Shown: positions 9,109 to 38,270, counted from the stretch's first letter. The stretch: 64,000 nucleotides of DNA from an uncultured candidatus Porisulfidus sp. (GCA_965116025.1 OZ220480.1:640001-704000), one strand, 5' to 3'. Program-made: numbers and translations. The notes: generated by a model from the sequence alone, not told the origin.

Positions 9109-9115
9109 GCCGGAC

Positions 9116-12790: not shown

Positions 12791-12801
12791 AGGACGAGCG
12801 C

Positions 12802-13251: not shown

Positions 13252-13261
13252 CGCGCGGCGC

Positions 13262-13972: not shown

Positions 13973-14379
13973 CTCCGGTACGCCTGCTCGATGGCTTCCT
14001 GCCGGTTTTTCTCCTCAGCGCTGAACGAGGCGGTGGGACGAAGCAACAGGCGCTCGATCCCGATCGGCGCCCCAGTCGCCTCGCAATAGCCATACGAGCC
14101 GTCCTCAATCCGGCGCAGGGCCTCCTCGATCTTCGGCAACAGCTTGGAATCCCGGTCGAGCGCGCGGACCTTCAGGCTCGTGTCCTCCTCGACCGAGGCG
14201 CGATCCAGCTCGTCGCACTCCCGATGCTCCTCGGACAGCTCCGCCTTGGTTCGCTCCAGCCGCTCGCCCAGCTCCTTGCGCAAGTCCAGCAGGCGCCGCC
14301 GGAAAAACTCCAGCTGCGCGGCGTTCATGTAGTCCTTGCGCGGCGCGCGAATCAACTGCTTCTCGGTTAGTTTTTTCAA
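13969..14379 (-). CDS. dksA: RNA polymerase-binding factor DksA (non-4-Cys type)
   Basis: 'DYMNAAQLEFFR', coiled-coil tip 'DELDRA' and 'YGYCEATGAPIG..RL..RP'. Confidence 0.92.
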   Translation of the reverse strand: MKKLTEKQLIRAPRKDYMNAAQLEFFRRRLLDLRKELGERLERTKAELSEEHRECDELDRASVEEDTSLKVRALDRDSKLLPKIEEALRRIEDGSYGYCEATGAPIGIERLLLRPTASFSAEEKNRQEAIEQAYRS

Positions 14380-14462
14380 AGTGTCTCCTTGCGCTCCTCA
14401 CGGCTCGCGCTCTTCTAAGAAACTTATTTTACTTCCTCGCGCCGAGCGGCGCGAGGGATGTC

Positions 14463-15035
14463 TCAGGCGACGACTTCTCCAGCCCGCGGCCGCAGCAACT
14501 CGGACTCCACCTCCGCGCGCCTCTCGAATCCCTTGAGTTTCTCGATCAAGGCCAACGCGAAATCCATCGCCGTGCCCGGCCCGCGCGAAGTGACCACCGG
14601 TCCGTCGATCTCCACCGGAGCCCAGGTGAACTCCACCTCTCCGTGGTCCTCCGGATCGATGCAGCCCGGATAGCAGGTCGCCTTGCGTCCGTCCAGGATG
14701 CGGCGGTTCGCCAAAACCTTCGGAGCCGCGCAAACCGCCGCCACGGCGCGACCCTGATTCATCTGCCTCTCGAGCAACTCGTGGACGCGGGGATCCGCGT
14801 CGAGGTGATCGGCGCCAGGCAGGCCGCCGGGGAGCACCACCATATCGAAACTCTCGTCCATGACCTCGTCCAGCGTCACGTCCGGCACGAGCCGCGTCCC
14901 GCGCGACGCGGTGACCGCGCCCTCGCGCAGACCGGCGGTGACGACCTCTATATCCGCACGGCGCAACAGATCGATCAGGGTAACGGCTTCCAGTTCCTCG
15001 CAGCCATCCGCCAGAGGAATCAGGACCCGGCTCAT
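14463..15035 (-). CDS. DJ-1/YajL family glyoxalase/deglycase
   Basis: 'GCEELEAV', 'VLPGG', 'AVCAAP' and 'TSRGPGTA'. Confidence 0.92.
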   Translation of the reverse strand: MSRVLIPLADGCEELEAVTLIDLLRRADIEVVTAGLREGAVTASRGTRLVPDVTLDEVMDESFDMVVLPGGLPGADHLDADPRVHELLERQMNQGRAVAAVCAAPKVLANRRILDGRKATCYPGCIDPEDHGEVEFTWAPVEIDGPVVTSRGPGTAMDFALALIEKLKGFERRAEVESELLRPRAGEVVA

Positions 15036-16345
15036 CGGGAGCTGGCTTCCCTACGCTCTTGAACCAACCCGCCGCTCCGGAGCAACTCGAGCGCGGCGAG
15101 CACTTGGTTGTCCTCGCGCAACAGCTCCGCCTCCGACTTCTCGGGCGCGTCCTCGCTCTCTTCTTCCGGCTCCTCCGGCGCGACGAACTCCACTTCGTAG
15201 TCGGGCTCGATTCCCTCCTCGTGGATCGAGTGGCCGGCGGGCGTGTAATAGCGCGCGGTGGTCAGCTTGAGCGCGGCGTTCTGGTTGTTCAGAGGCACCA
15301 GGGTCTGCACGGAGCCCTTGCCGAATGAGCGCGTGCCGAGCAGCTTCGCTCTCCCGTTGTCGCGCAAGGCTCCCGCCACGATCTCGGAAGCGGAGGCGGA
15401 ACCGCCGTTGATCAGCACGATCACCGGCACGCCGCCAGTCTGGTCCACGCCGCCGGCGCGCTCCTCGACGTTCGACTTTTGGACGCGGCCACGGGTGGAG
15501 ACGATCACGTCGCTGCGCATCAAAAAGGCGTCCGAGACCTCGACCGCCGCGGAGAAAAGCCCTCCCGGGTTGTTGCGCAGGTCCAGGACGATGCCCTGGA
15601 GGTCGTCGTCCGACTCGTCCCGCAATCGCTCCACGAGGCCCAGAAAATCGGAGCCGGTGCGGGACTGAAAGTTGCTGATGCGCATGTACGCGTAGCCGGG
15701 CTCCAAAATCTGCCCCCGAACGCTGCGCACCTTGATGATATCGCGCGTGATGGAGACATCGAAAGGCTCCTCGGCGCCCTTGCGGGAAACGGTCAGGGAG
15801 ATAGGGGTTCCGGGCTTGCCGCGCATGATCTGCACGGCGTCATGCAGGGAGAGGTCATGCACCGGCTCCCCGTCCAGCTCCAGAATCAGGTCACCGCTAC
15901 GGATCCCCGCGCGCTTCGCCGGCGTATCGTCGATCGGGGAGACGACCTTGATCGCCCTCTCGTCCGAGTCCTTGCTGACCACGATGCCAAGCCCGCCGAA
16001 CTCTCCCGACGTCGCGACCTCCCAATCGTCCAGCTCTTGCCGGTCCAGATAGGTCGTGTAGGGATCCAGCTCGGACGCCATTCCGCGCATGGCGTTGCGC
16101 ATCAAGGTGCTGTCGTCGATCTCGTCGACGTACTGGCGCTTGATCAGGGCGAAGGTTTCGGAGAAGTCGCGCAGGTCCTGCAACGAGACGGAGGGGGCGC
16201 CGTCCGTCTTGGCGACGACCGCGTGGCCGACCGCGCCAGCGGCCACCAGCAACGCCGGGATCAGCAATTTTCGTATGGGATTCTTGCGCACGGTCTGGAA
16301 AAGGCGACGGGGTCGGTATTCTAGAGAAATCCCCGAAAGCGTCAA
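15032..16345 (-). CDS. ctpA: S41 family C-terminal processing protease
   Basis: PDZ 'GEFGGLGI', 'LDLRNNPGG', 'GSASASEIVAGAL' and 'FGKGSVQ'. Exact start is uncertain. Confidence 0.93.
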   Translation of the reverse strand: MTLSGISLEYRPRRLFQTVRKNPIRKLLIPALLVAAGAVGHAVVAKTDGAPSVSLQDLRDFSETFALIKRQYVDEIDDSTLMRNAMRGMASELDPYTTYLDRQELDDWEVATSGEFGGLGIVVSKDSDERAIKVVSPIDDTPAKRAGIRSGDLILELDGEPVHDLSLHDAVQIMRGKPGTPISLTVSRKGAEEPFDVSITRDIIKVRSVRGQILEPGYAYMRISNFQSRTGSDFLGLVERLRDESDDDLQGIVLDLRNNPGGLFSAAVEVSDAFLMRSDVIVSTRGRVQKSNVEERAGGVDQTGGVPVIVLINGGSASASEIVAGALRDNGRAKLLGTRSFGKGSVQTLVPLNNQNAALKLTTARYYTPAGHSIHEEGIEPDYEVEFVAPEEPEEESEDAPEKSEAELLREDNQVLAALELLRSGGLVQERREASSR

Positions 16346-16351
16346 ACCCCA

Positions 16352-17158
16352 GTTTCAACTTTCAAGCGCAACAGCATTGTAACCCGGTGGAGAGCGGCGA
16401 GAACGGCAGGATGACGAAGAGAATCGGGGGAAAGCCGGCGAGGATCGGCCGCGTCCGTCCGGGGAAGACCGGCCTCCCCGGACGGATCATCGCCGCGCCG
16501 ACCTGCCCCCTCGGATTTACAGAAGCCGGAACATCTCCTCTCGCCAAGCGCGAACCACCTCCGACTCCGCGCCGAAAAACGCCTCGTTCGGCGTGCGCCA
16601 TCCCAAGCGGCGCCGAGGCCGGTCGTTCAGGCGATCCTCCACCGCCCGCGCCCATACCGCTGGCACCTACGGTGGCCCTGCCGCAAGTACAGATACAGGT
16701 CGCCGCCCCGCCGCTGATCCGCCCATACCCAGCGGTAGATGAGTTTGCTAACCTTCCCCAAGCCCTACTTTCCAGCCACGCGCTGATCTGTTACGGGCTC
16801 CAGCTCCGTTTCAGCAACTTCTCGACCCGCTCCCACACCGCGGCGAGACGCGCCGCCAAGCCCGCCCTTGGCGCCGCTCTTTCGTCTTCCGGCACGCCAG
16901 CTCGGCCCGGTATCGTCCGCTCCACCCGCCGGCGTTCCGCTTCAGCTCGCGGCACACCGTGCTGCGGTCGATGCCGACCCTTCGCGCCACCCCCGCTTGG
17001 CTCATGCCGAGGTCCGGCAGCACCTTGATGTTGGGTCTCGGTGAGTCGCGCGCAGCCGCTCATAAGCGCCTCTCTCGGGCGGTTGATAACAATGAGACGT
17101 TACCGCAACTCATCATTTCCCCGCCATTCTTCGGAGTGTTGCGCTTGAAAGTTGAAAC
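16352..17158 (-). mobile_element. Internally deleted IS30-family element with intact terminal inverted repeats
   Basis: Perfect 22-bp IR: gtttcaactttcaagcgcaaca (16352-16373) and tgttgcgcttgaaagttgaaac (17137-17158). Minus-strand fragments: 'SQAGVARRVGIDRSTVCRELKRN' (HTH), 'WSP*QIS' and 'RLNDRPRRRLGWRTPNEAF' (IS30 C-terminus). The DDE core is absent. Confidence 0.9.
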
Positions 17159-17349
17159 CGTGATCCTTTATGAGAAGGCGTGCAGAAATTGTATCCGCTT
17201 GAAGCCAGCCAAGCTTTCCATCGGTGTCGCGACCCACCGAGCGGCGCTTCCGCAAGCGGATTCCTCGGATTGGAAACGCGGGGCTTCGAGATCCAGTCCC
17301 GCTGAAGCGCGCGGTGTATAAGCGAACTCTAATGCTAGAATGCTTGGCT

Positions 17350-17682
17350 ATGGCCGTCCAAGCTCCTGTTTCCGAATCTTCCGCGGGCACGCTCGACGCG
17401 GACATCGCGCGAGCCTGCCAAGCGGTCAAAGGGCTTTCGCATCCGATTCGTCTCAAGGTGCTCTGTTGCCTGCTGAGCGGACGGGAAATGCCGGTCAGCG
17501 ACTTGGCCAACTATTGCGAGACGTCGCAGAGCAACATCTCGCAGCACCTGAGCACCCTTCGGCAATGCGGCATCTTGGCGGCCCGAAAGGAGGCCACCTG
17601 CGTCTATTACAAAATCAGCGACCCGCGCATGATCCAGTTGATGTGCCTGATGCGCGACATGTTCTGCTCGCGGCCGCACTGA
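17350..17682 (+). CDS. ArsR/SmtB family regulator (BigR/SqrR/YgaV-like)
   Basis: 'KGLSHPIRLKVLCCL', 'SQSNISQHLSTLR' and a C-terminal 'FC'; precedes a rhodanese gene. Confidence 0.88.
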   Translation: MAVQAPVSESSAGTLDADIARACQAVKGLSHPIRLKVLCCLLSGREMPVSDLANYCETSQSNISQHLSTLRQCGILAARKEATCVYYKISDPRMIQLMCLMRDMFCSRPH

Positions 17683-17690
17683 GCCCCCGG

Positions 17691-18116
17691 ATGCAGGAAT
17701 ACCTGGATTTCGCGGCGCACCACCCGTTCCTGATGGGAGCGGTGTCGGCGTTGGTGGCCATGATCCTGTTCACCGAGGCGCGGCGGTTGACGCGGCGATA
17801 CGAGGAGATCTCCGCGGCGGAGGCGGTCCAGCTGATGAACCGGGAATCGGCGTGGACGCTAGACGTGCGGGAAGACAAGGAAATCCAGGATGGCGTGATC
17901 CCGAGCGCCCGGCGCGTCGCGCTCAGCGAGCTGCCCAAGCGCGTGGGGGAGCTGAAGGACCAGAAAGGCCCGGTGATCGCCTACTGCAAAAACGGGGTCC
18001 AGGCGCACCGCGCCTGCCGGATCCTGGCGCGCGAGGGGCTAGAGCCCGTGTACAACCTCAAGGGCGGAATCGCCGCCTGGCGCGAGGCCGGGATGCCTCT
18101 GGAGGCCAGCGCGTGA
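17691..18116 (+). CDS. Rhodanese-like domain protein (YibN-like)
   Basis: N-terminal TM segment, 'LDVRE', 'IAYCKNG' and 'VYNLKGGIAAW'; upstream of grxC. Confidence 0.9.
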   Translation: MQEYLDFAAHHPFLMGAVSALVAMILFTEARRLTRRYEEISAAEAVQLMNRESAWTLDVREDKEIQDGVIPSARRVALSELPKRVGELKDQKGPVIAYCKNGVQAHRACRILAREGLEPVYNLKGGIAAWREAGMPLEASA

Positions 18117-25167: not shown

Positions 25168-25659
25168 ATGCGTGGAGAGCGACGTAAACTGCTATTAATG
25201 CTAAAGAAGGCGGGAAGGTCCGTACCGATATCCGAGATTCGGGAAGGGTTTGAGGTCGACGACCGAACCCTGCGGCGCTGGCTGCTCGCCCTGCGCGACG
25301 AGGGGCGAGTCGAGGCCATCGGCGACAACAAGGGAAGACGCTACCGCCTCGCGCCATCGCGGGAGACCGGCCCGGGAATCGAGGATGGAACGCTTGAGGA
25401 GCTGCAACGGGAACTACTGCGCGAGGCGATCCGCGACGCGGCGAGCGGGCGGACGCTGACCGTCCTGCTCGCGGAGCGCGTCCGGGAGCTCCTGCCGGCC
25501 CCGGCCCGCGCGGGCTTCATAAAAACCACCTTGTCTCGCCTGCGCGCCATGACGACCGAGGAAGCGGAAGCGCTCGAGATTCCTCCGATGATGTTTCAAT
25601 ATTGGCGACGCGCGCAAACTTCGGCCCAATGCCAGGAAAACCAAACCCCGCCACCATGA
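25168..25659 (+). CDS. Winged-HTH protein resembling the N- and C-termini of HTH-Fic proteins, without a Fic domain
   Basis: wHTH 'ISEIREGFEVDDRTLRRWLLALRDEGRVEAIGDNKGRRYRL'; helical C-terminus; no HPFxxGNGR motif. Confidence 0.65.
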   Translation: MRGERRKLLLMLKKAGRSVPISEIREGFEVDDRTLRRWLLALRDEGRVEAIGDNKGRRYRLAPSRETGPGIEDGTLEELQRELLREAIRDAASGRTLTVLLAERVRELLPAPARAGFIKTTLSRLRAMTTEEAEALEIPPMMFQYWRRAQTSAQCQENQTPPP

Positions 25660-26387
25660 CCCTTCGCTTTCTCTCCATCGAGCATATCCCGCAAGAAGGA
25701 GTCGGCGCGATCTCCTCGTATATCCGGGAGCGCGGCGGCCACCTCGCCCGGCATAGACAATACCAGGGAGAGCCCCTATCCGCTTCCCACGACGACTACG
25801 ACGCGCTGGTGGTCATGGGAGGGCCGATGGGCGCGAGCGATGGAGATCGATACGCCTGGCTCGACCAAGAGACGCGCTTCATACGAGAGGCGATCGATCA
25901 GGGCAAGCGGGTTCTCGGCGTTTGCCTGGGCGCGCAACTGATCGCCAAGGCCCTGGGCGCGGAAGTGCGGAAGAACCATTGCGCGGAGATCGGATGGTTT
26001 CCGGTCCGGTTCGAGGACTCGTTTCGGAACGCTCCACCAGGGCGAGGACTCGACCGCGAGCTGGAGGTCCTCCACTGGCACGGCGACACGTTCGAGACAC
26101 CGTCGGGCGCGACTCGCGTCGCGAGCAGCGAAGCGTGCGCGAATCAAGGATTTCTGTTCGAGGGAAGGGCACTGGGGCTTCAGTTTCATCTGGAGATGGG
26201 AATGGAAGAAGCGCGCGTGATGACGGAAACCTTCCGGGACGAGTTGAAGCCCAGAAGGTTCGTGCAGGGCGAGGAGGAGATCAAGGCGCGAGCGGAGCGG
26301 AACGCCGCAACAGTGCGAAAAGCGCTGTTCTCTATGTTGGATGGCTTGCTGGAGCGCTTAGCGCCAAGGGAGGCGACCGAGGTCTGA
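25656..26387 (+). CDS. Class I glutamine amidotransferase (GMP-synthase-like, stand-alone)
   Basis: 'VMGGPMG', 'GVCLGAQL', 'HWHGDTF' and 'LGLQFHLE' (Cys-His-Glu triad); ATGA overlap with the upstream gene. Confidence 0.9.
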   Translation: MTLRFLSIEHIPQEGVGAISSYIRERGGHLARHRQYQGEPLSASHDDYDALVVMGGPMGASDGDRYAWLDQETRFIREAIDQGKRVLGVCLGAQLIAKALGAEVRKNHCAEIGWFPVRFEDSFRNAPPGRGLDRELEVLHWHGDTFETPSGATRVASSEACANQGFLFEGRALGLQFHLEMGMEEARVMTETFRDELKPRRFVQGEEEIKARAERNAATVRKALFSMLDGLLERLAPREATEV

Positions 26388-26479
26388 CCCGCATCGCCGA
26401 TGCTGGCGACATGGCAAAGTCGACGGCTCTTTGCGCTGTGTTAAACTTCACGCTCACCCCCATCAGATATCAACATCTA

Positions 26480-28373
26480 GTGCCCCCCCCCCCCCCCCCC
26501 CCTACAGCTCGTCTTCCCTATCGCCAGCACCAAGGTTGGCAAGCCATACGCGATAGCTGAGCATTGCGTCGTCGGCCCCGACATAGCGTGTCGAGAACTG
26601 ATCCAAAACGCGCTTGACGCGCACGCCTCTTTGCGAGACGGGCAGCCTTGCAAAGTTCTTTTCAAGATCTCCAAGATCAAGACCGAGGAGATTCCCGGAT
26701 ACGCCTGTTACCGGGCGGCCCTGAAAGACGCGCTCAAGTCGTGGAGCCAGAATGAATCCGTATCCACGTATCTCAAATCCATACAGAGAAACCTGAGCCA
26801 GCCAGAACTCGAGGTCCTTTATGTCATTGACAACGGCAAAGGCTTCAGCGAGAGAGGACTGGAGGCCGTCATGGCCGAAGGTTCTCCCGACAAGCAGGAG
26901 GGCTCTACCGGATCATTCGGAGTGGGACACCTCACGAGTTACGGCTTGTCAGGGATTCAGTACATTTGCTACGCGAGCAAGCAACGGGACGGGACGCTGT
27001 TGGCCACCGGTCACGCCATTCTGTCATCGCACGATTCCAATGGCGAGTTGCGCTCGAACAACGGATACTACGTCCAAGAATATCATCCAAGGTTCACCGA
27101 GCCCTTCGATTTTGGGGCGACCGATCAAATTCCCGATTTCCTGCGACGCGAACTGGATCGAATAACGTCTCCCTCCGGGTCCATCATCGCGATATTGGGA
27201 TTCAATCGATTCTCCCAAGGCTCCCGAAAGAGATCTCGCGGGCAAAAAGAACTACATGAACTGATCCGCGAAGCGGTCGCCGAGAATTTCGCTATCGCCA
27301 TTTGGGCGAACCATCTTGAAGTCGACGTTCTCGATACGACGCAGAATGATCTCGAATCGATACTGCACCATACGGTGGACAAGAACGGTATAGAAGAATT
27401 CCTTAAGCACATGGCTCGCCCGGACACCGGGACCAAGGTGCAGACGCTCAAGGCGCAACAAACGCTGGATTCCATCCAAACGTACCGGGAATCCTCAAAG
27501 TCAGGCAATCTCTCCGGCGATTTCAAGGATTGCCAAATCTCTTTGCGCAACCGGGCTCGCGCCCATAGCGTGTCGATCTGGCGCAACGGCATGCTCATCA
27601 CGCGCAAGCATCGGGGACTGGCCAAAAATCAGTTCGATAACAAGAAGCCTTTTGACGCTGTCGTCATGCTGAGCGGCAAGGAGCGTCCCCACGACGCGCA
27701 CGACATCGTGAAAAAAGCGGAAACGCCTATGCACGACAGAATTCAGGAGAACAGGCTTGAGAACGAAACCGAGCGGAAAACGCTGAAACGATGGTTGGAA
27801 GAAATTCGATCATGGATTTCCGAACATGCCGAAGAATCGGGAGGCGAGTCAGCGGATCTGGAAGACGAGATCGTCCTAGATGGAGGCAATACCATGAAAG
27901 AAAAAGCATCAAGGTCCTTGAAAATCATTCCGGGCTCGGGGAATGGCGAAGACGAGCCTATCGATCCCAAAACGCCCAAGACAACACCGCCGTATCCCCC
28001 ACGTCCGGGCCCACGCCGCGTCCGGCGAAAACTCTCTCCAGCGAAAGCCCAAGGGAGGCCGCTCGCGAACGACCGCTACCGAATCCGAATAAAGCCAGAG
28101 GCCCGCGTCGACAGAGGCTTCGTCAAAATCATCATTGACAGCGGGCAAGACCCCAGTTGCAGGGGGGCGATCCAAGACACGCCTCTAGTCATTCGGTCAG
28201 CAAAAAGTCCAGATGGACGAGCATACCGCGTGGGTAGCGGTGGATTGGTTCAGTTGGGCAATCTGCAAGAAGGCGAAACGGTAGTCGTCGATTTGGCTTT
28301 CCGGGATCCGCCCGGGGACTTCAACCAAATCTCTCTAGGCTGTCTGCTCGGAACTACGGAGGAGAAAGAGTGA
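26480..28373 (+). CDS. GHKL (MORC/Hsp90-like) ATPase-domain protein; 5' end frameshifted at the poly-C tract as sequenced
   Basis: The frame of track ORF 26631..28373 stays open upstream to a TAG at 26478 and reads 'LQLVFPIASTKVGKPYAIAEHCVVGPDIACRELIQNALDA' (motif I). Also 'YVIDNGKGFS' (motif II), 'GSFGVG' (motif III), a Pro-rich linker and a beta-rich tail. Confidence 0.8.
26483..26502 (+). repeat. Poly-C homopolymer (C20)
   Basis: 20 consecutive C directly after GTG at 26480-26482. Confidence 0.95.
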
Positions 28374-29221
28374 GCACGTTATTTCCCCACCCTGTTCTGC
28401 ATCAGGATACGCTCGACTATAGCGACCCGAAGGCGTACCAAGCGACCTTCAAAAGAATGGGAAAAACCACGCTGGTAGTGGAGCACACCTTGCGGCGAGA
28501 CACATTGATCGCTTCGTTGATTGAGCAAGAAAAGGCTTCTTTCTACTGCACGGTATCCATCGGGGGAACAGCTTTTCGCAAAACCGAGCCGGCTCCCGCG
28601 AGCATCCGTGATGGGAGCATCACCGCCCATCAAGAAATCGAACACCCCGCCTTCGTCAATCGGTACGACGTATTCGCGTCCGCTGGCGTCCTGAACCACG
28701 AAGCGAAGAGAATGCCATGGGAAAAGGCCACGGGCATTGATGCTTTTTATAAAGACGAAACGTCGGATTTAGAGTTTTCCGCAGGGGCCATGCTCGCTTG
28801 CAGCGGCTGGCGACATTTTTATCCGATGGACGCCTTGTTTCGAATCAAGTCCAATTCCGACCTTAATACGGGAGTATTCCAAGCCGAACCAAGCTATCAG
28901 CCCACCATCCGAATCACCATCCAAATGAACAACAAACTGTACGATGAAGTGGAAGGCAACTCCCAAGGAACAGTTCGGTCGCATGTCCTATGCGCGTCCC
29001 TAATTCCCGTGCTGAAAGAACTTGAAGAGAAATACAAACGCTGCAGCGAGAAAAGCGACACGGAAAGCCTAGACACTGATAGAGCGGACTTAGAGGCGGC
29101 GGAAGGGTTGAAACGATTTCTCATCTCGAAAGAAATTCCGACTTGGGAGGATGAAGCGTTCAACGCGGTTGAAGCGGCATCGAAGTTCAAGCCAGCCATG
29201 CTGGACGACCGCGAGGAATAA
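28370..29221 (+). CDS. Hypothetical protein with N-terminal 'FPHPVL' motif (cassette gene 2)
   Basis: 283-aa ORF; GTGA overlap with the GHKL gene and GGAG RBS upstream. Confidence 0.75.
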   Translation: MSTLFPHPVLHQDTLDYSDPKAYQATFKRMGKTTLVVEHTLRRDTLIASLIEQEKASFYCTVSIGGTAFRKTEPAPASIRDGSITAHQEIEHPAFVNRYDVFASAGVLNHEAKRMPWEKATGIDAFYKDETSDLEFSAGAMLACSGWRHFYPMDALFRIKSNSDLNTGVFQAEPSYQPTIRITIQMNNKLYDEVEGNSQGTVRSHVLCASLIPVLKELEEKYKRCSEKSDTESLDTDRADLEAAEGLKRFLISKEIPTWEDEAFNAVEAASKFKPAMLDDREE

Positions 29222-29224
29222 CGG

Positions 29225-30136
29225 ATGACGATTTATCGCCACTTGAGCGACGAGCGCCTGTACCGGTGGGCCAAATCCATGATCGCCAAAAAAGGAAGCG
29301 AGAAACAACGCGAGTTTCTTGCGCATGTCGCTGACGACAGCCCCGATGAATTCGTTGATTATGTGGAAAGCTGTATAGGAAACCGAGCCTCAGCCTATAA
29401 AAACCCCGACGGAGAAACTCCCACCCTGCTCGATCAATCGGGACAACCCGTCGTGTCAATGACTGCCGGCCACATGTATCTCATGCCAGCAAAGGACATC
29501 CAGAGACTGCACGACCACTGGCGAGACATCCCGTATGGAGACGCGGTTTGTCCAACCTTATGGGGCGCGATCACTCTGTCCGAGATTCGAGCGGGCCGAA
29601 TTCATCCTGTCTGGCTCGCCGTGGATCGTAAAGGATGCGAAGACGCGACGCGCAAAGAGATCGAAAGATCTCTGCGAGAAAAACAGGACATGAAAATCGA
29701 TACGCTGGTGCGACGGTGCATGCGGTGGATGACAGCACCAGGAACCATGCGCGGCGCGCCCGAGTTATACGGCAACTGCTCTCTCGCGAAAGCTTGGTGG
29801 TGCGGACATTTCTCGCGTTTGGTCCACGACCAGACTAAAGCCGACCTTGACGAGATCGTTAAATCCCTGCAGAAATCCTGGCTTGGACTGACCGACTATC
29901 TCGCGGGGAAACTGACCGTGATCGGCGAGCCCAGCGTTATCGCGGGATTCACCCTGTGGGCCCGCAAGCGACTCGATCAAGAAAAGCAATTGCCGCGAAA
30001 ACATGTCGAGCGGACCTGCCAGACATTAGGAGAGATCTCTTCCTGGTGCGTGCTCGGCTGGATGTCTGCCGAGGAAATCGAGAGAAAGATTTTCGGCTTC
30101 AAACCAGTAACGAGCTTTCAAGAAGACGTGCACTAA
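29225..30136 (+). CDS. Hypothetical protein, possibly DUF6339-like (cassette gene 3)
   Basis: 303-aa ORF starting 3 nt after gene 2. 'AVCPTLWGAIT' and 'NCSLAKAWWCG' recall the DUF6339 'xxxRLW' and 'RNxxSRLWW' motifs (from memory). Confidence 0.65.
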   Translation: MTIYRHLSDERLYRWAKSMIAKKGSEKQREFLAHVADDSPDEFVDYVESCIGNRASAYKNPDGETPTLLDQSGQPVVSMTAGHMYLMPAKDIQRLHDHWRDIPYGDAVCPTLWGAITLSEIRAGRIHPVWLAVDRKGCEDATRKEIERSLREKQDMKIDTLVRRCMRWMTAPGTMRGAPELYGNCSLAKAWWCGHFSRLVHDQTKADLDEIVKSLQKSWLGLTDYLAGKLTVIGEPSVIAGFTLWARKRLDQEKQLPRKHVERTCQTLGEISSWCVLGWMSAEEIERKIFGFKPVTSFQEDVH

Positions 30137-30142
30137 CGCATC

Positions 30143-31534
30143 ATGAGCGCCTCCCGCAGTGGAGCTGTTGATGTTCCGAGACTATCCGCGCATCTTTGGA
30201 GAGGAGGGCTCCCACGTCGCGGAATCCTCCATTATGAATCCGCGAAGCATCGCGATGCTCCACATGTAGTCAAGTTCTCTGGAGGCCGGTCCAGCGGCCT
30301 GATGTTGCTTATCCTCCTAGAAAACGGTTTGCTGAAAGCGGAGCGGGGAGACGTGGTCCTGTTCACGAACACATCCGCCGAGCATCCGGCCACTTATGAC
30401 TTCGTCAAAAAGATGAAGCGCGTCACCGAGCGTATGGGAATTCCTTTCTTTCTCGCCCAGCTACAGACTTTCGAGACCGTCGCGAAAGGCGAATGGCGCC
30501 GCCGGCTAAGCTACCGCCTGACGACCGATAGCCCGGCATCCGCCAAAGATCCTTTGGGCTATGAATATCGCGGAGAGGTTTTCGAGGAGGCAATAGCCTG
30601 GAACGGTATGCTTCCCTCAGTGCATACCCGCGTCTGCACAACGCTGATGAAAATGTTCGTGACTCGGGAGTTTTTGTCAGACTGGTTCGGTAGCGCGGAC
30701 GGAATCCCGATGCGCGGCCATACCGGCGACACTTCCCAAGTAATGCCCAGCATTCTGTACCAGGAACACTTGGTGAATCGAGGAAAAATGTCTTTCATGG
30801 AGTACCGAAAACGCCATGATCTTTTGAAATCCCGACCCACATTCAGGCCCGAGCAAAAGTATGCGGATTACACGAAGGCGACCATCCAAGGCCATGAAAA
30901 TCCAAGACTCAGGGAAAGCGTGCTAGGAAACAAGTGCGAACTATTCGGCGAGCATTCCGCCAAATTTCTGACCTTCTTGGGATTTCGGTTTGGGGAGTAC
31001 GCACGCTACCAGCGAATGACACAACGAAACAAGGGGGAGGAAACCCCCGGACATGACACCCACCCAACGGGCGAGTTTTCTTATTCCCCCCTCTTCGACC
31101 TCGGCATCGATCAAGCCAAAGTGCTACGGTTTTGGAAAAAACAACCGGCGCGCCTGCGCCCCCTCCTTCCGACAGATATTAATCTTTCCAATTGCGTGTA
31201 TTGCTTTCTGAAAGGTCCTCGGGCCCTAGGCGAAATTCAAAACACTAAGAGAGACTTCGAAAAAACGTTGCCTCCTTCCGTGCAAGCCGAGTGCAGGAAA
31301 ACCAAAACGCCCAATTCTATTAACTGGTGGATCCACCTGGAGGATTCGAGAAAGCGAACAGCGAACAAGAAAAACTCGGATGGCAGCAACAACCAAACGT
31401 TCGGCATGTTCGGGCTGAAAGACTTGGACTACCGGGCAATTAAAGAGCGAGCGTTAGTAGAAAAGCGAAAAGACAAGCGGGCTTTCACGGAGACATTGCC
31501 CGCCTCCACCTTGAATTGCGAATGCACCGACTAA
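30143..31534 (+). CDS. PAPS-reductase/PP-loop family protein with Cys clusters (DndC/SspD analogue)
   Basis: PP-loop 'VVKFSGGRSSGLM', 'FTNTSAEHPATYDFV', 'RVCTTLMK', 'GFRFGEYAR', 'SNCVYCFLKG' and C-terminal 'CECTD'. Confidence 0.85.
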   Translation: MSASRSGAVDVPRLSAHLWRGGLPRRGILHYESAKHRDAPHVVKFSGGRSSGLMLLILLENGLLKAERGDVVLFTNTSAEHPATYDFVKKMKRVTERMGIPFFLAQLQTFETVAKGEWRRRLSYRLTTDSPASAKDPLGYEYRGEVFEEAIAWNGMLPSVHTRVCTTLMKMFVTREFLSDWFGSADGIPMRGHTGDTSQVMPSILYQEHLVNRGKMSFMEYRKRHDLLKSRPTFRPEQKYADYTKATIQGHENPRLRESVLGNKCELFGEHSAKFLTFLGFRFGEYARYQRMTQRNKGEETPGHDTHPTGEFSYSPLFDLGIDQAKVLRFWKKQPARLRPLLPTDINLSNCVYCFLKGPRALGEIQNTKRDFEKTLPPSVQAECRKTKTPNSINWWIHLEDSRKRTANKKNSDGSNNQTFGMFGLKDLDYRAIKERALVEKRKDKRAFTETLPASTLNCECTD

Positions 31535-32670
31535 AGCCCGTTTATTTCGATTACGCGGCCACCACTCCTGTCGATGAGCGCGTTGTGGAAGCGATGACTC
31601 CCTATTGGAAATTGGGCGGAACCTTCGGTAACCCCTCGAGCATTCACCATCCCTATGGGACCGAAGCGGCGAACGCAGTCGAAATGGCGAGGAAAAGAGT
31701 AGCCCGCTTGATTGGAGCGGAAGCCCGCGAGATCATCTGGACATCTGGAGCCACAGAAGCGAACAATCTCGCTATGCGAGGGTGTCTTCAAGCTGGAACA
31801 AAATCTCCGCGCCAGTTGATTACCGTCGCCACCGAACACAGCTCGGTTCTAGACACGGCGATAGCGCTTCGCAAAGAAGGAATGGATGTCAAAGTGTTAC
31901 CAGTTGATCGGAACGGGCTTGTTGGACTGGAAGAGCTCGAGCGGGTGATCAGTGAAGGTGACGCTTTGGTTTCAATCATGTGGGTCAACAACGAAACCGG
32001 GATCATTCAGCCTGTGGAAGAGATTTCTAGTCTATGCAGAAAGGAAGGCGCGATCCTCCATATCGATGCGGCTCAGGCGATAGGGAAGACCCCTGTTAAT
32101 GTCCAGAAAGTCGCAGCTGATTTGGTCTCGCTGTCCGCCCACAAAGTTTACGGCCCCAAAGGAATTGGCGCGTTGTTCGCACGTAAGGGAATCAAAATCA
32201 ATCCGATCATGCACGGTGGCGGACAGGAAAAGGGGATACGCCCCGGAACTTCTCCTGTCCCCATGATCGCGGGCATGGGCATGGCTTTCGACATTCTCCG
32301 TCGGGAAGCGAGCTCGTTCAACAAGCAAGCGGCGAATTGGCACGCGAGGTTGACATCCACCATCGAAGGACTGGGCGGAAGCCAAATCAATGGAGGAAAA
32401 GCGAAAAAAGTCCCTCACATCATCAACGCCAGTTTCAAGAATCTGGATGAAACGCTAATCCCATATATGAGGAAAGTCGCCATTTCGGCCGGCTCCGCCT
32501 GCGCGACAAAGAGAACCACCGCATCCCATGTCCTGCGAGGCATGGGCGTGAGCCGCCGCATGGCGCTTACTTCTCTGCGGATTTCGATAGGAAGATTCAC
32601 CACCGATTCGGATATAGAGATTCTTGAGCAGGACTTAATTGACGCCTTGTCCAAGCTGAGGGCTGGATAA
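31522..32670 (+). CDS. Cysteine desulfurase (IscS/DndA/SspA-like)
   Basis: 'YFDYAATTP', 'FGNPSS', 'TSGATEANN', PLP lysine in 'SAHKVYGPKGIGAL' and catalytic Cys in 'SAGSACAT'; overlaps the upstream gene by 13 nt. Confidence 0.93.
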   Translation: MHRLKPVYFDYAATTPVDERVVEAMTPYWKLGGTFGNPSSIHHPYGTEAANAVEMARKRVARLIGAEAREIIWTSGATEANNLAMRGCLQAGTKSPRQLITVATEHSSVLDTAIALRKEGMDVKVLPVDRNGLVGLEELERVISEGDALVSIMWVNNETGIIQPVEEISSLCRKEGAILHIDAAQAIGKTPVNVQKVAADLVSLSAHKVYGPKGIGALFARKGIKINPIMHGGGQEKGIRPGTSPVPMIAGMGMAFDILRREASSFNKQAANWHARLTSTIEGLGGSQINGGKAKKVPHIINASFKNLDETLIPYMRKVAISAGSACATKRTTASHVLRGMGVSRRMALTSLRISIGRFTTDSDIEILEQDLIDALSKLRAG

Positions 32671-32686: not shown

Positions 32687-34504
32687 ATGGGAAAAATGAC
32701 CGAGTATGAATCTAGGACGATCTATGAGTGGCTGATGAAAATTCATCAGGGAAAAATAGCCTTGCCCAGCTTTCAGAGAGATTATGTATGGAAGCCAGCA
32801 CAAGTCAGCGAACTGCTGAAAGCCCTATTGAAAGACCGCCCCGTTGGGGCCTTCTTGACGATGAGCTTTACGAATGCGAGACCAACTCCAGCATTTAAAC
32901 CCAGATCTTTTTTTGATGTGGGCGATGAGAATCAGACTTTCGAAGGCTGTGAGGAACTGGTTTTGGACGGCCAACAGCGATTAACGTCGCTCTGGCGAGC
33001 GCTTAAAGCGGAAAGCGCTCGGCAACAATATTTTGTGAAGGTTGAGAATTGGGATTCCGATGAACTTGAAGTAGCGCGAATGGACGATCCTGTGCGACTG
33101 GAAAGAGATAAGTCGAAAGTCGTTAAAGATCACGCTCACGCGAAAGAACTGAAGCTTATTCCGATTCGCATTCTGGGAATCGATGGCGTTACTCAAGAAG
33201 ATGACGCTTTGTACAAATGGTGCGCCAGCGTATACAGCGATGACGAAGAGGGTCGAGAGCACGCCAGACAGCTGACTCGAAAAATCGATACGAGCTTCGC
33301 GCAGAAACTTCATCATCGGGGGTTGTGGTTTATACAATTGCCCGAAGGCCTGCCGCGAGAGGACGCGATAGAGATTTACATCAAGACAAACCAATCCTCA
33401 TCCATTGTAAAACCATTCGATATCGCGGTAGCCGAATACGACCGCCAGAAAGAGGACTCTTTGCGGAATGAAATTCTTGGGTGGGTCGAACAAACGCCCG
33501 AAGCCAAGCGACTATTCAATTCAGATCCTGAAAAAGTGGTCCCCGATGTGGGTGAATTGATTCTGAAAATCGCATGTCTGCAAAAGAAAAAAGTCCCGAC
33601 TGAGAAAAGCTACATGTCTTCCGCAGTTATTGAATATTTGCAACGGGAAAACGCCGGTCTCAAAAAAATACTGGATGGACTGGATTGGGCTTTCCGGTTG
33701 CTTGAGGAAATTAACATTTTCTATCGGACATATCTCCCCAGCACTGTTCCTCTGCAAGTCGTTCCAGCACTGCATCCCGAATTCGAAAAAATCAAAGACC
33801 CGGACCGTAGAGGTTTAGCGAGAAATTTCTTGTTCGCATATATTTGGCGATCATTCTTGGGGGACCGCTACACTCGGGAAGTGAATACCAAGCTGAAAGA
33901 AGATTATGGTGGTTTGGTCGAGTTGTTGTCACATATTTCAGAACATGGGCAGGATGGTGTTCAGAACAAAACATCAGGCGTTCCCGTGTTTTTAGAAGAG
34001 GTGACATTTCCCGATTTGAGAGTTTTGTCCCGCGTCAAAGATCCTATCAAGTCACCGACTACGAAGAACATGATCGCCAGATCTCTCCTGATCGTCAGCA
34101 CGCAGGGAGGAGCGCGCGATTTCGCTAGTGGTGAGGCGATCACCAAATTGGATATCGAGAAAAGAGAGCGACACCACATCTTTCCCCGCAACTTCCTGCA
34201 AAAGAACGGTATTGAAAATCCACTGAGGAATCATGCCTTGAATTTCTGCCTTATCACGGGCCCCGCCAACAAAAAGTTTTCTAATAAAACACCTCTTAAA
34301 CAAATAACGGAGCGCTTTCTTGAAAACAGGCACTTGACCGAAGCGGCGCTGAAGCAAAGAATCGCTTCGCACTTAATTCCCTATGAGGCCATTAAAGATG
34401 TTGGTGAAAAAAACGTAAAGGCGACATATCGCTATTTCATTAAGGAGAGAGCAAAAATGTTCATCGAAAAAATACAAGTATTGACCAAGGTGCCTTTTCA
34501 ATGA
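32687..34504 (+). CDS. DUF262 + DUF1524/HNH-like protein (GmrSD/SspE-like)
   Basis: 'LPSFQRDYVW', 'LVLDGQQRLTSL' and C-terminal 'HHIFP...NHALNFCLITGPANKKFSNKTP'; GGAGG RBS. Confidence 0.88.
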   Translation: MGKMTEYESRTIYEWLMKIHQGKIALPSFQRDYVWKPAQVSELLKALLKDRPVGAFLTMSFTNARPTPAFKPRSFFDVGDENQTFEGCEELVLDGQQRLTSLWRALKAESARQQYFVKVENWDSDELEVARMDDPVRLERDKSKVVKDHAHAKELKLIPIRILGIDGVTQEDDALYKWCASVYSDDEEGREHARQLTRKIDTSFAQKLHHRGLWFIQLPEGLPREDAIEIYIKTNQSSSIVKPFDIAVAEYDRQKEDSLRNEILGWVEQTPEAKRLFNSDPEKVVPDVGELILKIACLQKKKVPTEKSYMSSAVIEYLQRENAGLKKILDGLDWAFRLLEEINIFYRTYLPSTVPLQVVPALHPEFEKIKDPDRRGLARNFLFAYIWRSFLGDRYTREVNTKLKEDYGGLVELLSHISEHGQDGVQNKTSGVPVFLEEVTFPDLRVLSRVKDPIKSPTTKNMIARSLLIVSTQGGARDFASGEAITKLDIEKRERHHIFPRNFLQKNGIENPLRNHALNFCLITGPANKKFSNKTPLKQITERFLENRHLTEAALKQRIASHLIPYEAIKDVGEKNVKATYRYFIKERAKMFIEKIQVLTKVPFQ

Positions 34505-34578: not shown

Positions 34579-35556
34579 ATGCCTTTGAACGTAGAGAAGT
34601 ACGCGAAAAAGTTCCGGGCATTGCGCGTGCACAAACAAGGAGAGACGATCTCTCCGCACAAACCCTGCATGTTGCTGGCGGTAGTCGATGTTGCGGAAAG
34701 AGGCGACCTGGCTAAGAACGAAATCCGTGTCCATGACGCTCCCGCCTTGGCGGACATGACGTTGATAGACAGCTTCCGCAGGTACATGAAGGCGGCGAAG
34801 CCTGAGAGCCCGGCAAAGATAGCGAACCCCCTGCTCAGGCTGAAATCAGAAGGCTTCTGGCATCTATCGCCAAGGCACGGGGGCGCTACCGGTTTTGACA
34901 AGCTTCCTCGAAACGGCGGGGATGACTATAGGTATCTTCGTGACAACGTCGAGTTCATCCATCTCGACCGCGACCTCCACGAACTGCTTATGGACGAAGG
35001 CACCCGGTCAACAATCCGGGAATGCCTGATAGATCACTGGTTCCCTGAGTGCCGAGAGGAAATGTATGCCGCGGTCGTCGCGGGACGGGAACAATTCGAG
35101 TACGAGCAACAACTAGAAGACCCTTCCTCGCCCCTAACCCAAGAGCCACAAAAAGAAATCCGAAAACCTGTTTTCCGGCGCAGGGTGCTCCACGCTTATG
35201 GCTATAGTTGCGCCGCGACTGGCCTCCGCTTCTTGGAACTGGATGTCTTTCCCAGCCTTCTGGATGCCGCGCATATCCGACCATTCGCTGATTCCCATGA
35301 TGATCGAACGGTAAATGGGATAGCCCTTCAACCAACGTATCACCGAGCGATGGATCAGTTTTTGATCGCCCCCGGCCCGGACCTGAAATGGCACGTGTCC
35401 AATTCACTTGATGACCGCATCAATGGCCATCAGGAGCTAAAGAAGATAGATGGGGAAAGCCTCATAGCCCCGGTAGAGAAAAGAGACCTCCCGGACAAAC
35501 ATGCTCTGCAGTGGCGTCTTGAGCGATTGCACGAGATGGATCGACAGCGCAGATAA
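34579..35556 (+). CDS. HNH endonuclease with N-terminal sulfur-binding-domain (SBD)-like region
   Basis: 'SPHKPCMLLAV' and 'NPLLRLKSEGFWHL' (SBD-like); 'FRRRVLHAYGYSCAATG' and 'DAAHIRPF...NGIALQPTYHRAMD' (HNH). Confidence 0.85.
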   Translation: MPLNVEKYAKKFRALRVHKQGETISPHKPCMLLAVVDVAERGDLAKNEIRVHDAPALADMTLIDSFRRYMKAAKPESPAKIANPLLRLKSEGFWHLSPRHGGATGFDKLPRNGGDDYRYLRDNVEFIHLDRDLHELLMDEGTRSTIRECLIDHWFPECREEMYAAVVAGREQFEYEQQLEDPSSPLTQEPQKEIRKPVFRRRVLHAYGYSCAATGLRFLELDVFPSLLDAAHIRPFADSHDDRTVNGIALQPTYHRAMDQFLIAPGPDLKWHVSNSLDDRINGHQELKKIDGESLIAPVEKRDLPDKHALQWRLERLHEMDRQRR

Positions 35557-35904: not shown

Positions 35905-36894
35905 TCAGAATTTACCGTCACGCACCGTGTTTCCTCCTCGGAACGTCTTGATGATCCTGGGCTGAACCGGATCGTTATCGGGCAGCGGTCCTTTGCCTTT
36001 CTGAATCATTTTCGCGCCCACGCTGGTCAGCTCGCTGAGAGTGGCGGTGCCGGCCAGGGTCTTCTTGTCTGAGTAGAAATCAAACCAAGGAAATCCAGCA
36101 TCGGTATAGTCTTTGGCGGACGGAGGCTTGTGCGGTGGCTGATGTTCTGTGATCTCCTGATACAGGGCACTGTTGGCCAGATGCACAAAGCAACGAAAAC
36201 CGTTCTGTTGATCCCAGGCTTCCATGCCGTATTCATCCTCGTAGATTTCCTGCCGCATCAGGCCGCCGGGGGCAAGACCCATGTCAAGGTCTGGTACTGC
36301 GCACCCATCATCTGCCACACTGCACATGGCGACATGCTGTTTTTTAAAGTGCTCAACGTGCTTGGCATAGAAATCGCGCTTCATCGGGTAGGCGATGATC
36401 TGAAGGCCCCCATGCTCGGCCTCACCGGTGATCTGCTCTTCCGCCGTGAAACCTTCGCCCAGGGGCATGGCCACGAATTGGCGAATGTGCCCCCCGGAGA
36501 CGTTGAAGCCATCCAGCCACGGCTGTTCCGGGATGACCACGTAGTCTTGCGGGTCAGCCGACAGGCCGTTGGTCCATTCCTTGCCGGATATGGCATCAAT
36601 TTTGCCGGCAGCGATCTTGATGGCGCAGGGATAGTCGCCTGAAAAACTGATCCATAGGGCTTCGGATTGATACATCGGGATGAATACTCCACCATGACGG
36701 CGCCAGGCTTCGGGCAGCTTCTCCGCAAAGTCGTCTACATGCTCTATCGGGAAACGTCCCAGCCCGGGGGGAAGGGAATATTCCCGGTTGTCGTCCGGAA
36801 TCCGCAGGGTGCGTTGAAAATCAATGTCGCAAACCGCTTCCTCGTGGACTTCCGGAAACCGGAAGGTGAGTTGGTTGTCCAGTAGTTCAATCAT
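35905..36894 (-). CDS. Conserved hypothetical protein ('FQRTLRIPDD..Y.LPPGLG.FP' family)
   Basis: 329-aa ORF with AGGAG RBS; motifs 'PMYQSEALWISF', 'QPWLDG', 'RQFVAMPLG.G.T.E.QITG' and 'MGLAPGG...QEIY.D'. Confidence 0.8.
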   Translation of the reverse strand: MIELLDNQLTFRFPEVHEEAVCDIDFQRTLRIPDDNREYSLPPGLGRFPIEHVDDFAEKLPEAWRRHGGVFIPMYQSEALWISFSGDYPCAIKIAAGKIDAISGKEWTNGLSADPQDYVVIPEQPWLDGFNVSGGHIRQFVAMPLGEGFTAEEQITGEAEHGGLQIIAYPMKRDFYAKHVEHFKKQHVAMCSVADDGCAVPDLDMGLAPGGLMRQEIYEDEYGMEAWDQQNGFRCFVHLANSALYQEITEHQPPHKPPSAKDYTDAGFPWFDFYSDKKTLAGTATLSELTSVGAKMIQKGKGPLPDNDPVQPRIIKTFRGGNTVRDGKF

Positions 36895-37304: not shown

Positions 37305-38270
37305 CAGTCGTGAACTATTCGCCCCCGGTCATGCGGAGCGGAAGAAAAATCGCCTCAAGAAGACGAGGATTTCCGGAGTTTTCTCCAAGTGCGGGAAAAC
37401 CCAGCCAGAAGCTTGGCGAAGTTGTGCCCGGCCGCCGCCAGAACCGCGTTGGCGCGATCGCCGGAGCGTCCTTTCAGCCGATTTCGATGCGTCCGATGAT
37501 CCGACTTCAGATGGCCGATGGTCGGCTCGAGCGCCACGCGCTTCATCTGCCCGCGCGCCCGTACCGCCCGCATAGGATCAGCGCCTTCTTCCCGACGCGC
37601 TGGTAGCTCTGCCGCAGAGCCACGCCGCGCTTCCGCGCCTCTCGAACCAGCGCCACCCGCACCTTGTGATACAGCCGCGCGTCGGTCGGGAACGCCACCG
37701 CCTTCTCCCGCGCCGTCGTGTCCACGTTCACCCGCTCCAGCTCACGCGAGCCCAGGAACCCCTCCCGCCGCGCCACCCGGATCGTCCGCGTCAGCAAGCA
37801 GTCTAGGCGATCCCCCACCCGTTCCCGCCAGCGCGTCATGCCGCTTGAATGCAGCGGAGCCTGGATCTGCATGCGCTCATAACCGCAGAACGCCTGCCAG
37901 TAGGGGTTCTCCCGCCAGATCCGAACCACCCGCTCGTCGCTCATGTCATGCGCGTACTTCAGAAAATGAAGACCTGCCATCAGCCGGGCCGGCAAGGGCG
38001 GCTGCCCCGGCCCGGAAGCATGCGGGCCGCCGAGCTCCTCCTCCATCTCCTCCCAGTCGATCTTCTCGCCCAGCAACAGCAGGGAATTCTTCGGATCCAG
38101 CATATGAGACAGGCGGGCGCGGACCAGGTCGGCGTGAGTATCGGGCTTTTTCGGTTTCATGTTTCGCAAGGAATCGGTGCTCAAGCGTGGGAAAGCTTGC
38201 GAAACGGCATAGCCAAAAACGGATTCTATGTCAGCGATTCAAGCAGTTACGAATACTTCATCAACGGCTG
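37305..38270 (-). mobile_element. IS5-family element remnant (frameshifted, internally deleted transposase)
   Basis: 'LLLLGEKIDW', 'PPLPARLMAGLHFLKYAHDMSDE', 'WRENPYWQAFCG' and 'VDTT.REKAVAFPTDARL', then a frameshift into 'QMKRVALEPTIGHLKSDHR...AVLAAAGHNF'. Ends are estimated from degenerate IRs. Confidence 0.85.

Follow-up and report, generated by a model that had tools for sequence, protein, structure and literature searches.

The stretch analysed here (hereafter the window; 64,000 nucleotides, GCA_965116025.1 OZ220480.1:640001-704000, from an uncultured candidatus Porisulfidus sp.) contains at 26.4-37 kb a block of seven genes, A to G, that we read as an acquired island of the phosphorothioate (PT) type. 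The island resembles a restriction-modification (R-M) system and appears to fit none of the four established PT systems, which are Dnd, Ssp, Tdp and BREX type 4 according to the available text of PMC12914056. Our profiles covered Dnd, Ssp and BREX type 4, and we give this reading a probability of about 0.5. The putative core is a trio of genes (A, B and C) related to the defence candidate PDC-M33, which is joined by a predicted sulfur-inserting enzyme (D), a cysteine desulfurase (E) and two candidate nucleases (F and G). According to our analysis, this variant of PT-type, R-M-like defence built on a PDC-M33 core is most likely an undescribed system.

The genome comprises 2,018,984 bases and is assembled as one contig, in which the window occupies G000:C1:640001-704000 (G, L and P numbers are our own labels). 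In the window, the GC profile drops to 0.49-0.59 over ~26.4-37 kb, compared with ~0.65-0.70 on both flanks, and is back at 0.64 or above from ~38 kb. The seven genes lie in this low-GC stretch on one strand, and their junctions range from a 19-nucleotide (nt) overlap (D/E) to a 74-nt gap (F/G). The stop of A and the start of B overlap in GTGA, with a GGAGGAG box upstream, while 3 nt separate B from C and 6 nt separate C from D. The preliminary description of this DNA had reported a GHKL protein and two coupled open reading frames (ORFs) at 26480..30136, and these are the genes A, B and C, three tightly coupled frames on the same strand. The genes and the tract discussed below are as follows (aa, amino acids; PAPS, 3'-phosphoadenosine-5'-phosphosulfate; SBD, sulfur-binding domain):

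poly-C tract, 26483..26502, + strand: homopolymer of 20 C directly behind GTG 26480, where gene A begins; candidate for slipped-strand phase switching, in an out-of-frame state
gene A, 26480..28373, + strand: GHKL (Bergerat-fold) ATPase; Pro-rich linker and, at the C terminus, a domain of ~100 aa; readable from GTG 26480 only after a shift by one base in the C tract
gene B, 28370..29221, + strand: 283 aa, starting MSTLFPHPVL; N-terminal Ig/FN3-like beta-sandwich and a helical C-terminal part
gene C, 29225..30136, + strand: 303 aa, all-helical, distant relative of DUF6339
gene D, 30143..31534, + strand: 463 aa, PP-loop ATP-pyrophosphatase of the PAPS-reductase superfamily; candidate sulfur-inserting 'writer'
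gene E, 31516..32670, + strand: 384 aa, cysteine desulfurase of the IscS/DndA/SspA type, putative sulfur donor
gene F, 32687..34504, + strand: 605 aa, DUF262/GmrSD-N protein, SspE/BrxU-like
gene G, 34579..35556, + strand: 325 aa, SBD and HNH nuclease; relative of phosphorothioate-dependent type IV restriction enzymes

Profile searches were based on PADLOC-DB 2.0.0, Pfam and NCBIfam. Immediately behind a TAG, the long frame of gene A opens at 26481 and runs for 630 codons until the stop at 28373. It contains the GHKL boxes RELIQNALDA, DNGKG and GSFGVGH as well as a Pro-rich linker (...DPKTPKTTPPYPPRPGPRR...), and it matches Pfam HATPase_c_3 (2e-5) and PADLOC PDC-M33A (5.5e-39). Across 17 relatives, E39, N43 and D46 vary little or not at all, and D117, G119, G121 and G144-H150 are invariant. 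Searched against the PDB, a profile of A retrieved just slivers of the MutL N-box at E 0.26.

Gene B matches PADLOC PDC-M33B (1.3e-8), while Pfam found nothing in it. Its AlphaFold2 (AF2) model, with a mean predicted local distance difference test (pLDDT) score of 87.8, combines an Ig/FN3-like sandwich with helices. A structure search with this model returned generic Ig/FN3 beta-sandwich matches alone (best Z 8.3), the ESM Atlas gave nothing beyond 'hypothetical protein' clusters, and no conserved catalytic motif was seen in B. Gene C matches PDC-M33C (1.3e-4), its AF2 model (mean pLDDT 90.1) is all-helical, and W113, R163, R176 and W192 are invariant among its relatives. Against the PDB, the model of C gave nothing at E <= 0.001 in Foldseek (best E 1.7) and a best Z of 5.8 over 68 residues in VIA. 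The assignment of C to DUF6339 in the preliminary description holds clearly for relatives (3.9e-9 and 37 bits in L005; 2.6e-24 in C', the C protein of a second trio in L010) and is borderline for the window itself, where C scores 7.2e-5 and 23.1 bits on Pfam PF19866 against a gathering cut-off of 23.2, over residues 186-289 only. Neither B nor C contains conserved acidic or histidine residues suggestive of a nuclease. With a profile built from the window-type C, 534 representatives were retrieved at E <= 0.001 from 1.84 billion, and the best 150 of these 534 include ten B-C fusions, six with the whole of B and four with its sandwich domain only, as well as one tandem C-C protein.

The trio had been likened to the three-gene system Azaca (ZacABC), a comparison that we reject since no ZacA, ZacB or ZacC model matched A, B or C at E <= 0.01. 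Azaca consists of a DUF6361 protein, a phospholipase D (PLD) nuclease and a superfamily 2 (SF2) helicase with Walker A motif, as far as its description could be consulted (bioRxiv 10.1101/2025.07.10.664194), and all three are absent among the Pfam matches of A, B and C, so that the likeness is confined to the gene count of three. The resemblance to PDC-M33 is of a different kind. Here, the models for all three genes match in the order A-B-C on one strand, although the match of C is weak, and the layout is that of a GHKL-type ATPase of ~630 aa coupled to a protein of ~280 aa and a DUF6339-type protein. Canonical members of PDC-M33 score far higher (6e-73, 1.8e-30 and 1.7e-24 for A', B' and C' of L010). 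The window trio differs from them in that it belongs to a deep sister clade, has a PP-loop enzyme rather than a C5 cytosine methylase as its steady neighbour, and encodes a C protein of ~300 aa with a borderline DUF6339 score. PDC-M33 is itself a defence candidate only, and it offers no mechanism to borrow. A preprint reports 145 untested 'PDC' systems, and the term 'PDC-M' is absent from the text of it that was accessible (bioRxiv 10.1101/2024.01.29.577857).

Genes D and E are predicted to supply the sulfur chemistry. Gene D carries the PP-loop FSGGRSS and the cysteines C165, C351, C354, C459 and C461, which are invariant in 12 sequences. Its likenesses to known families are all weak (PADLOC SspD 1.8e-6 and BrxP 5.1e-6, the latter over residues 32-108 only; Pfam PAPS_reduct 0.0028), no DNA-recognition domain was recognised in it with Pfam or NCBIfam, and the family to which it belongs comprises 1073 mostly unnamed clusters. 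Gene E matches PADLOC SspA (5.2e-139) and DndA (4.8e-137) as well as Pfam Aminotran_5 (1.5e-79), and it reaches 376 bits on TIGR03235 (DndA), for which the cut-off is 480. A housekeeping IscS-like copy sits elsewhere in the genome.

In order to place this gene set in context, one genome per species was scanned for relatives of A, which yielded 18 loci, many of them from sponge-associated metagenome-assembled genomes. The trio is conserved. In 15 of the 18 loci, two ORFs of ~256-364 aa come after A (some of these lengths include over-extended starts), and this recurrence, together with the confident models of B and C, shows that the genes did not arise as chance frames; of the remainder, L002 and L009 are cut short, and in L013 the choice of ORFs failed. 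D lies beside the trio in 14 of the 18 (L001, L003-L009, L011, L013-L015, L017 and L018). The other four are L002, a contig of 2.2 kb, L016, which begins 135 nt before the A match, and L010 and L012, which contain double trios. In these two, the second trio is convergent and of the canonical PDC-M33 type, and in its C' (543 aa) DUF6339 is joined to a PP-loop domain at residues 275-490 that resembles SspD (2.2e-14). The fused form is a family of 1054 clusters, the 120 listed being 456-568 aa long, and hhalign of the D profile with fused C' gave 54.8% probability and E 1.2e-4 over the PP-loop and the R-x-C-T region. The adjacency in 14 of 18 loci and the DUF6339-PP-loop fusion indicate that D and the trio belong together. 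In L010 and L012 the two trios stand tail to tail (9884-18081), the window-clade trio being without a D of its own, and they may share a single writer.

A profile of D was found in 10 of 41 genomes, namely its own, 6 of the 15 further members of the genus, 3 of 12 from one sister family and 0 of 12 from another. Eight of the nine relatives' loci were examined (G414, a contig-end fragment, was left out), and the trio is present in 6 of these 8, in three different gene orders; L109 gives the same figures as L001 and is counted with it as one observation. D occurs without the trio in L114 (G412:C22, 581-8313), together with a sigma-70-region-4 protein, an SF2 helicase and an SMC-like ATPase, and in L116 (G406:C1, 7150-9029), where it is a solitary low-GC insert beside a MazF-type gene. 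This distribution indicates that D itself is mobile and modular. Sigma-70 region 4 helix-turn-helix (HTH) proteins also adjoin trios of different branches (L018 13538-17935, there with an RNA polymerase alpha C-terminal domain; L087 854-3889; L022 7302-8678) and may represent a further accessory component.

Canonical trios have a different partner. The same genome contains a second low-GC island with a trio (L022, G000:C1:298000-317999, minus strand 7302-13912), in which A'', B'' and C'' (645, 308 and 243 aa; DUF6339 5.4e-9) precede the genes of a C5 cytosine methylase (7.6e-36) and of a 458-aa protein that faintly matches sigma-70 region 4. AbiEi is encoded next to this island. The sole other DUF6339 match among 400 genomes of the phylum, in G184 (locus L023), belongs to a set in the order C5 methylase-A-B-C (DUF6339 3e-40). 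A metagenome scan, seeded with an alignment of four canonical A sequences and hence biased to the methylase-linked branch and unable to give the frequency of D-linked trios, yielded 80 loci. In 44 of these, the gene immediately 5' of A, on the same strand, is a C5 methylase homologue, and in 5 more such a homologue is nearby, which bears out the earlier statement that such trios often occur beside cytosine methyltransferases. No methylase was seen in 30 loci, 14 of which have less than 1 kb upstream, and in one locus no A ORF was called. Pfam searches of 60 neighbours of the 30 methylase-less loci returned EcoRII-C and Vsr, GmrSD_N, DUF499, one N6 methylase, or housekeeping genes. A D-type gene was found in 0 of the 80 loci of this canonical-A-seeded sample.

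The two kinds of partner follow the phylogeny of A. A quick IQ-TREE run included 46 A proteins, namely the window, 15 from the 18 loci, A' of L010, L022, L023 and 27 metagenome loci with full-length A, others having been dropped for length or redundancy. The 12 D-linked rows are all found in a single clade of 16 (98 in the Shimodaira-Hasegawa-like approximate likelihood-ratio test, SH-aLRT), together with L010, L012, L016 and L007b, while 13 methylase-linked rows fall in a separate clade of 18 (SH-aLRT 97). Because the D-linked and methylase-linked clades separate in the A tree, the change of partner is old and preceded a diversification across Pseudomonadota, Chloroflexota, Gemmatimonadota, Verrucomicrobiota and Actinomycetota. 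The preliminary description had proposed that a sulfur-transfer pair takes the place of the usual methyltransferase and that a modular reader is combined with different DNA marks. In substance, the first proposal is supported, as a trait of a whole old clade rather than of this locus alone. Of the second, the exchange of DNA marks is largely supported by the contrast between D-linked and C5 methylase-linked trios, which the tabulation of neighbours brought out, and by the fusion of PP-loop domain and DUF6339 in the sister branch, the trio being a putative reader.

Gene content, conservation, the pattern of partners, the fusions and the tract are observed in the sequences, and from them we infer the chemistry of the mark, the role of the trio, a defence activity and its switching as follows. 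D would take sulfur from E and use it to mark the DNA of its own cell, most likely as a phosphorothioate in the backbone. A, B and C would form an ATP-driven, DNA-engaging core to which the writer is docked through C and which would act against DNA without the mark; in the sister systems, the same core would work with a C5 cytosine methylase. F, which is GmrSD/SspE-like, and G, an SBD-HNH protein, would be accessory nucleases that sense the mark, and slippage in the poly-C tract would switch the expression of A, the assembled state being 'off'. In favour of a PT-type mark are the SspA and DndA scores of E, the PP-loop and the cysteines of D, the IscS gene 3' of D in 6 of the 18 related loci, the SBD of G, the three tandem G-like genes of L014, the DndB-domain gene of L013 and the F-like DUF262 gene in 4 of the 18 loci.

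Several observations weigh against this reading. Neither Pfam nor, for B and C, structure searches revealed a recognisable nuclease or any other effector domain in the trio, and many D-A-B-C cassettes stand alone among housekeeping genes with no nuclease near (in L015 the neighbours are enolase and CTP synthase). An IscS gene lies 3' of D in just 6 of the 18 loci, and an F-like DUF262 gene occurs with the cassette in just 4. The contact between C and D is deduced from fusions in a paralogous branch. The match of D to SspD is made without any stretch passing alone, D has no PADLOC DndC match, and no solved relative was found for it in the PDB by sequence or profile. An SBD-HNH enzyme such as G beside a PT writer is expected to cut the cell's own marked DNA unless the sequence contexts differ, and the count of 20 C in the tract could be a homopolymer error of the assembly.

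The lack of a recognisable nuclease in the trio also bears on a possible but unlikely alternative, according to which A, B and C are part of the sulfur-inserting machine. The GHKL ATPase would then stand in for DndD, SspC or BrxC, and B and C for DndE or SspB, while F and G alone would restrict and the nuclease-free cassettes would be orphan modification systems. PT writers need an ATPase and DNA-binding partners, and the available text of PMC12914056 calls the PAPS-reductase-domain protein and an NTPase essential. This agrees with a D protein that has no recognised DNA-recognition domain, and the DUF6339-PP-loop fusion recalls BrxP, which is described there as an SspD-SspB fusion (PMC12914056). 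We keep this alternative alive because no nuclease is seen in A, B or C and because minimal cassettes without nuclease, such as L015, exist. Against it, the same trio accompanies C5 methylases in 44 of the 80 metagenome loci and in L022 and L023. C5 methylases need no helper, so that the trio must do something other than write in these loci, and D occurs without the trio in two of the eight relatives' loci (L114 and L116). We therefore favour the reading of the trio as an effector, since it also accompanies self-sufficient methylases and since D occurs without it; the pattern of partners suggests that it is not merely a helper of the writer.

The remoteness of D from DndC, SspD and BrxP (best 1.8e-6), together with the missing solved relative, raises the question of whether the mark is a DNA phosphorothioate at all. 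D might instead adenylate and thiolate or otherwise modify a DNA base, RNA or a small molecule, the product of which the trio would sense. The PP-loop superfamily also includes enzymes that thiolate tRNA, and ThiI, MnmA, Ncs6 and TtcA are named as PP-loop enzymes in the accessible part of PMC12914056. The small share of loci in which IscS lies next to D would agree with such a role. We regard this as quite improbable, as the neighbours are directed at DNA (the SBD-HNH enzyme, the GmrSD-type proteins and, in L013, a DndB-domain gene between D and A), the sister trios pair with DNA methylases, and the cassettes form low-GC mobile islands among defence genes.

Genes F and G would supply the nuclease functions of the proposed system. 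Gene F matches Pfam GmrSD_N (1.8e-21, with the motif DGQQR), PADLOC HEC-05 (4.7e-20) and SspE (7.7e-5), and PDB 7p9k ('DUF262 domain-containing protein'; 8.3e-6), which we take to be BrxU. Its C-terminal part is His-rich (HHIFP...N...H) and, read by eye, looks like a His-Me finger, but Pfam gave no match to a C-terminal nuclease domain of the DUF1524 type. Gene G has the architecture of the SBD-HNH type IV enzymes, with an N-terminal sulfur-binding domain (residues 6-150 match PDB 8h0l, SBDHga1, at 3.6e-10) and a C-terminal HNH domain (Pfam HNH_2, 9.9e-8). On NCBIfam NF045808, which represents restriction enzymes binding phosphorothioated DNA, it scores 3.7e-26 and 91.9 bits, and since the cut-off is 180 we consider G a relative rather than an equivalog. 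Three tandem G-like genes flank the cassette in L014. As a speculation, G might target DNA marked by other PT systems, which seem to be common in the habitat.

Individual parts of the island recur in the established PT systems. SspABCD-SspE, a phosphorothioation-sensing defence reportedly described by Xiong and colleagues in 2020, has in common with it the desulfurase, the PAPS-reductase-family writer and a DUF262-type protein, with F in the position of SspE. No match to SspB (DUF4007) or to the P-loop ATPase SspC (DUF6079) was found, a GHKL ATPase and two unrelated proteins being present instead, and D and F match SspD and SspE just at the values given above. In BREX type 4, the PglX methylase of type 1 is replaced by the PAPS-reductase protein BrxP, as stated in the portion of PMC12914056 at hand. 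Like BREX types 1 and 4, the systems compared here pair one core with either a DNA methylase or a sulfur-inserting PP-loop enzyme, the PP-loop enzyme can be fused to a partner, and no core nuclease is evident. They differ from BREX type 4 in that BrxC, PglZ and BrxL were not matched, that D matches BrxP just at 5.1e-6 and that the core is a GHKL ATPase trio. With Dnd and Tdp the island shares the combination of an IscS/DndA-type desulfurase and a PP-loop writer; unlike in Dnd, the writer is without any PADLOC DndC match, and neither DndD nor DndE is found in the island.

A true DndC-like gene lies elsewhere in the genome, and the sole strong DndD-like match is at G000 969.6 kb. This region is a third low-GC island (L108, G000:C1:962000-979999, ~3660-11250) with AbiEi, a type II methylase and a restriction enzyme, a DndC-like gene (2.6e-117), a PbeC/DndD-like ATPase (5.2e-186) and a DndH-C-terminal-like protein. 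A run of 22 G stands just upstream of the DndC homology, and L108 is a candidate for a second phosphorothioate writer in one small genome. The survey of PMC12914056 required a P-loop NTPase beside the PAPS-reductase gene and would for that reason miss a GHKL-driven set; GHKL proteins go unmentioned in its accessible text, and its supplements may bear on D. Among the papers listed by our literature search, none concerned PDC-M33, DUF6339 or a GHKL-linked PT system, as judged by title or abstract.

The start of gene A deserves separate consideration. In the assembly, the 20 C at 26483-26502 come after GTG 26480, whose reading frame is shifted by one base against the long frame, and no 630-aa protein is encoded in this state. 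The preliminary description of A as a GHKL protein of roughly 630 aa with a Pro-rich linker thus stands for the 630 open codons, the GHKL boxes and the linker, but not for an intact gene starting at GTG 26480. A tract of 19 or 22 C would join GTG 26480 to the A frame and give M-PPPPPP(P)-LQLVFPIASTKVG, which is the N-terminus of relatives. The relative L001 has ATG...TCG followed by 19 C at the same place, in frame (MSHISPPPPPPRLIFP), and the close relatives P0002, P0005 and P0006 start with 4 to 8 prolines. The first in-frame ATG, GTG or TTG of A is TTG 26631, which would give a product of 580 aa without the ATP-binding N-box, as this box lies upstream of it.

Runs of this kind are a general feature of the genome, in which 45 runs of at least 10 C or G were found, every one of them 15-39 nt long; by our own arithmetic, less than one run of 15 is expected by chance. 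Of these 45 (for example L024 and L027), 31 stand at the beginning of an open frame of at least 880 codons or within its first ~210 nt. The two long frames tested are autotransporters, and the 31 tracts at very long frames point to a large set of phase-variable surface genes. Short-read contigs end inside the tract of gene A in all three public runs and none bridges it, which fits variation in length or mere sequencing trouble. We posit that the tract is likely a phase switch of gene A caught in the 'off' state. A second GmrSD_N/DUF262 gene of the genome (L025, G000:C1:770600-774800; 6.9e-29) has a 20-nt C/G run at 1997-2016, ~40 nt upstream of the start of homology, and may be another phase-variable defence gene.

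The frameshift could also be a fixed lesion, or a meaningless error of the assembly, in an island that is now inactive. GTG 26480 is out of frame and the sole in-frame canonical start removes the N-box; the database call for the window protein (P0001) is the truncated 580-aa form, the calls P0003, P0004 and P0011 are likewise without the N-box region, and a fragment of an insertion sequence (IS) lies at the edge of the island. We nevertheless consider a dead remnant very improbable. The other six genes are intact and tightly coupled, and the break falls exactly in the 20-C run, which in the relative L001 counts 19 C and is in frame. The abundance of such runs (45 in the genome, of which 31 mark the beginnings of very long frames) and the contig breaks at the tract in three of three runs also speak against a remnant.

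The low GC content, the patchy distribution of D and the varied gene orders suggest that the island at 26.4-37 kb was acquired horizontally. Two further features lie within it or near its right edge:

329-aa ORF, 35905..36894, - strand: convergent to the operon, inside the low-GC stretch; at most a putative member of the system
IS5-type transposase fragment (DUF772), 37543..38184, - strand: Pfam DUF772 7.6e-16; near the right edge of the low-GC island

The 329-aa ORF had no Pfam, PADLOC or NCBIfam match, and the ESM Atlas gave just 'hypothetical protein' clusters. Just 5' of the island, at 25168-26387 and with host-like GC, are a class-I glutamine amidotransferase and a small HTH protein that weakly matches HTH_11 and DUF7342, which are probably outside the system. 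No flanking direct repeats were found around the island in the window, no tRNA genes were found in the window within 15-45 kb, and a promoter scan was at chance level (7 found, 6.4 expected). In L109, from the same genus, a cassette of A to F begins ~100 nt from a tRNA-Val(GAC) gene at 12070-12146, and since the window has no tRNA gene within 15-45 kb, the insertion sites differ. The runs X2 and X3 of the same study contain copies of gene A that are 90-99% identical over window 26200-27000. In X3 nothing matches upstream of the tract, so that the cassette seems to have a different setting in a related strain.

A more far-reaching interpretation, which we regard as tentative and rather unlikely in its entirety, is that the trio is a mark-agnostic immune core comparable to that of BREX. 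Such a core would have a swappable writer, which could be a C5 methylase or a PP-loop enzyme, the latter either fused or, as in the window, free. It would keep out unmarked DNA although it has no nuclease itself. On this view the D-linked clade represents a fifth PT system, driven by a GHKL ATPase, and in this symbiont the poly-C tract would turn its epigenetic mark on and off across the population, as a sulfur-based 'phasevarion'.

If D and E write phosphorothioate together with the trio, an unnamed family would gain a function (1073 clusters of D and 1054 of the fused form). PDC-M33 would at the same time gain a testable logic, that of one core with exchangeable marks, and the chemistry of the writer would become separable from the reading of the mark by comparison of methylase-linked and sulfur-linked cores. 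The present analysis adds the candidate phase switch and the methylase-linked sister system in the same small genome. The poly-C tract would thereby provide a testable case of phase-variable modification of the DNA backbone in an uncultured symbiont.

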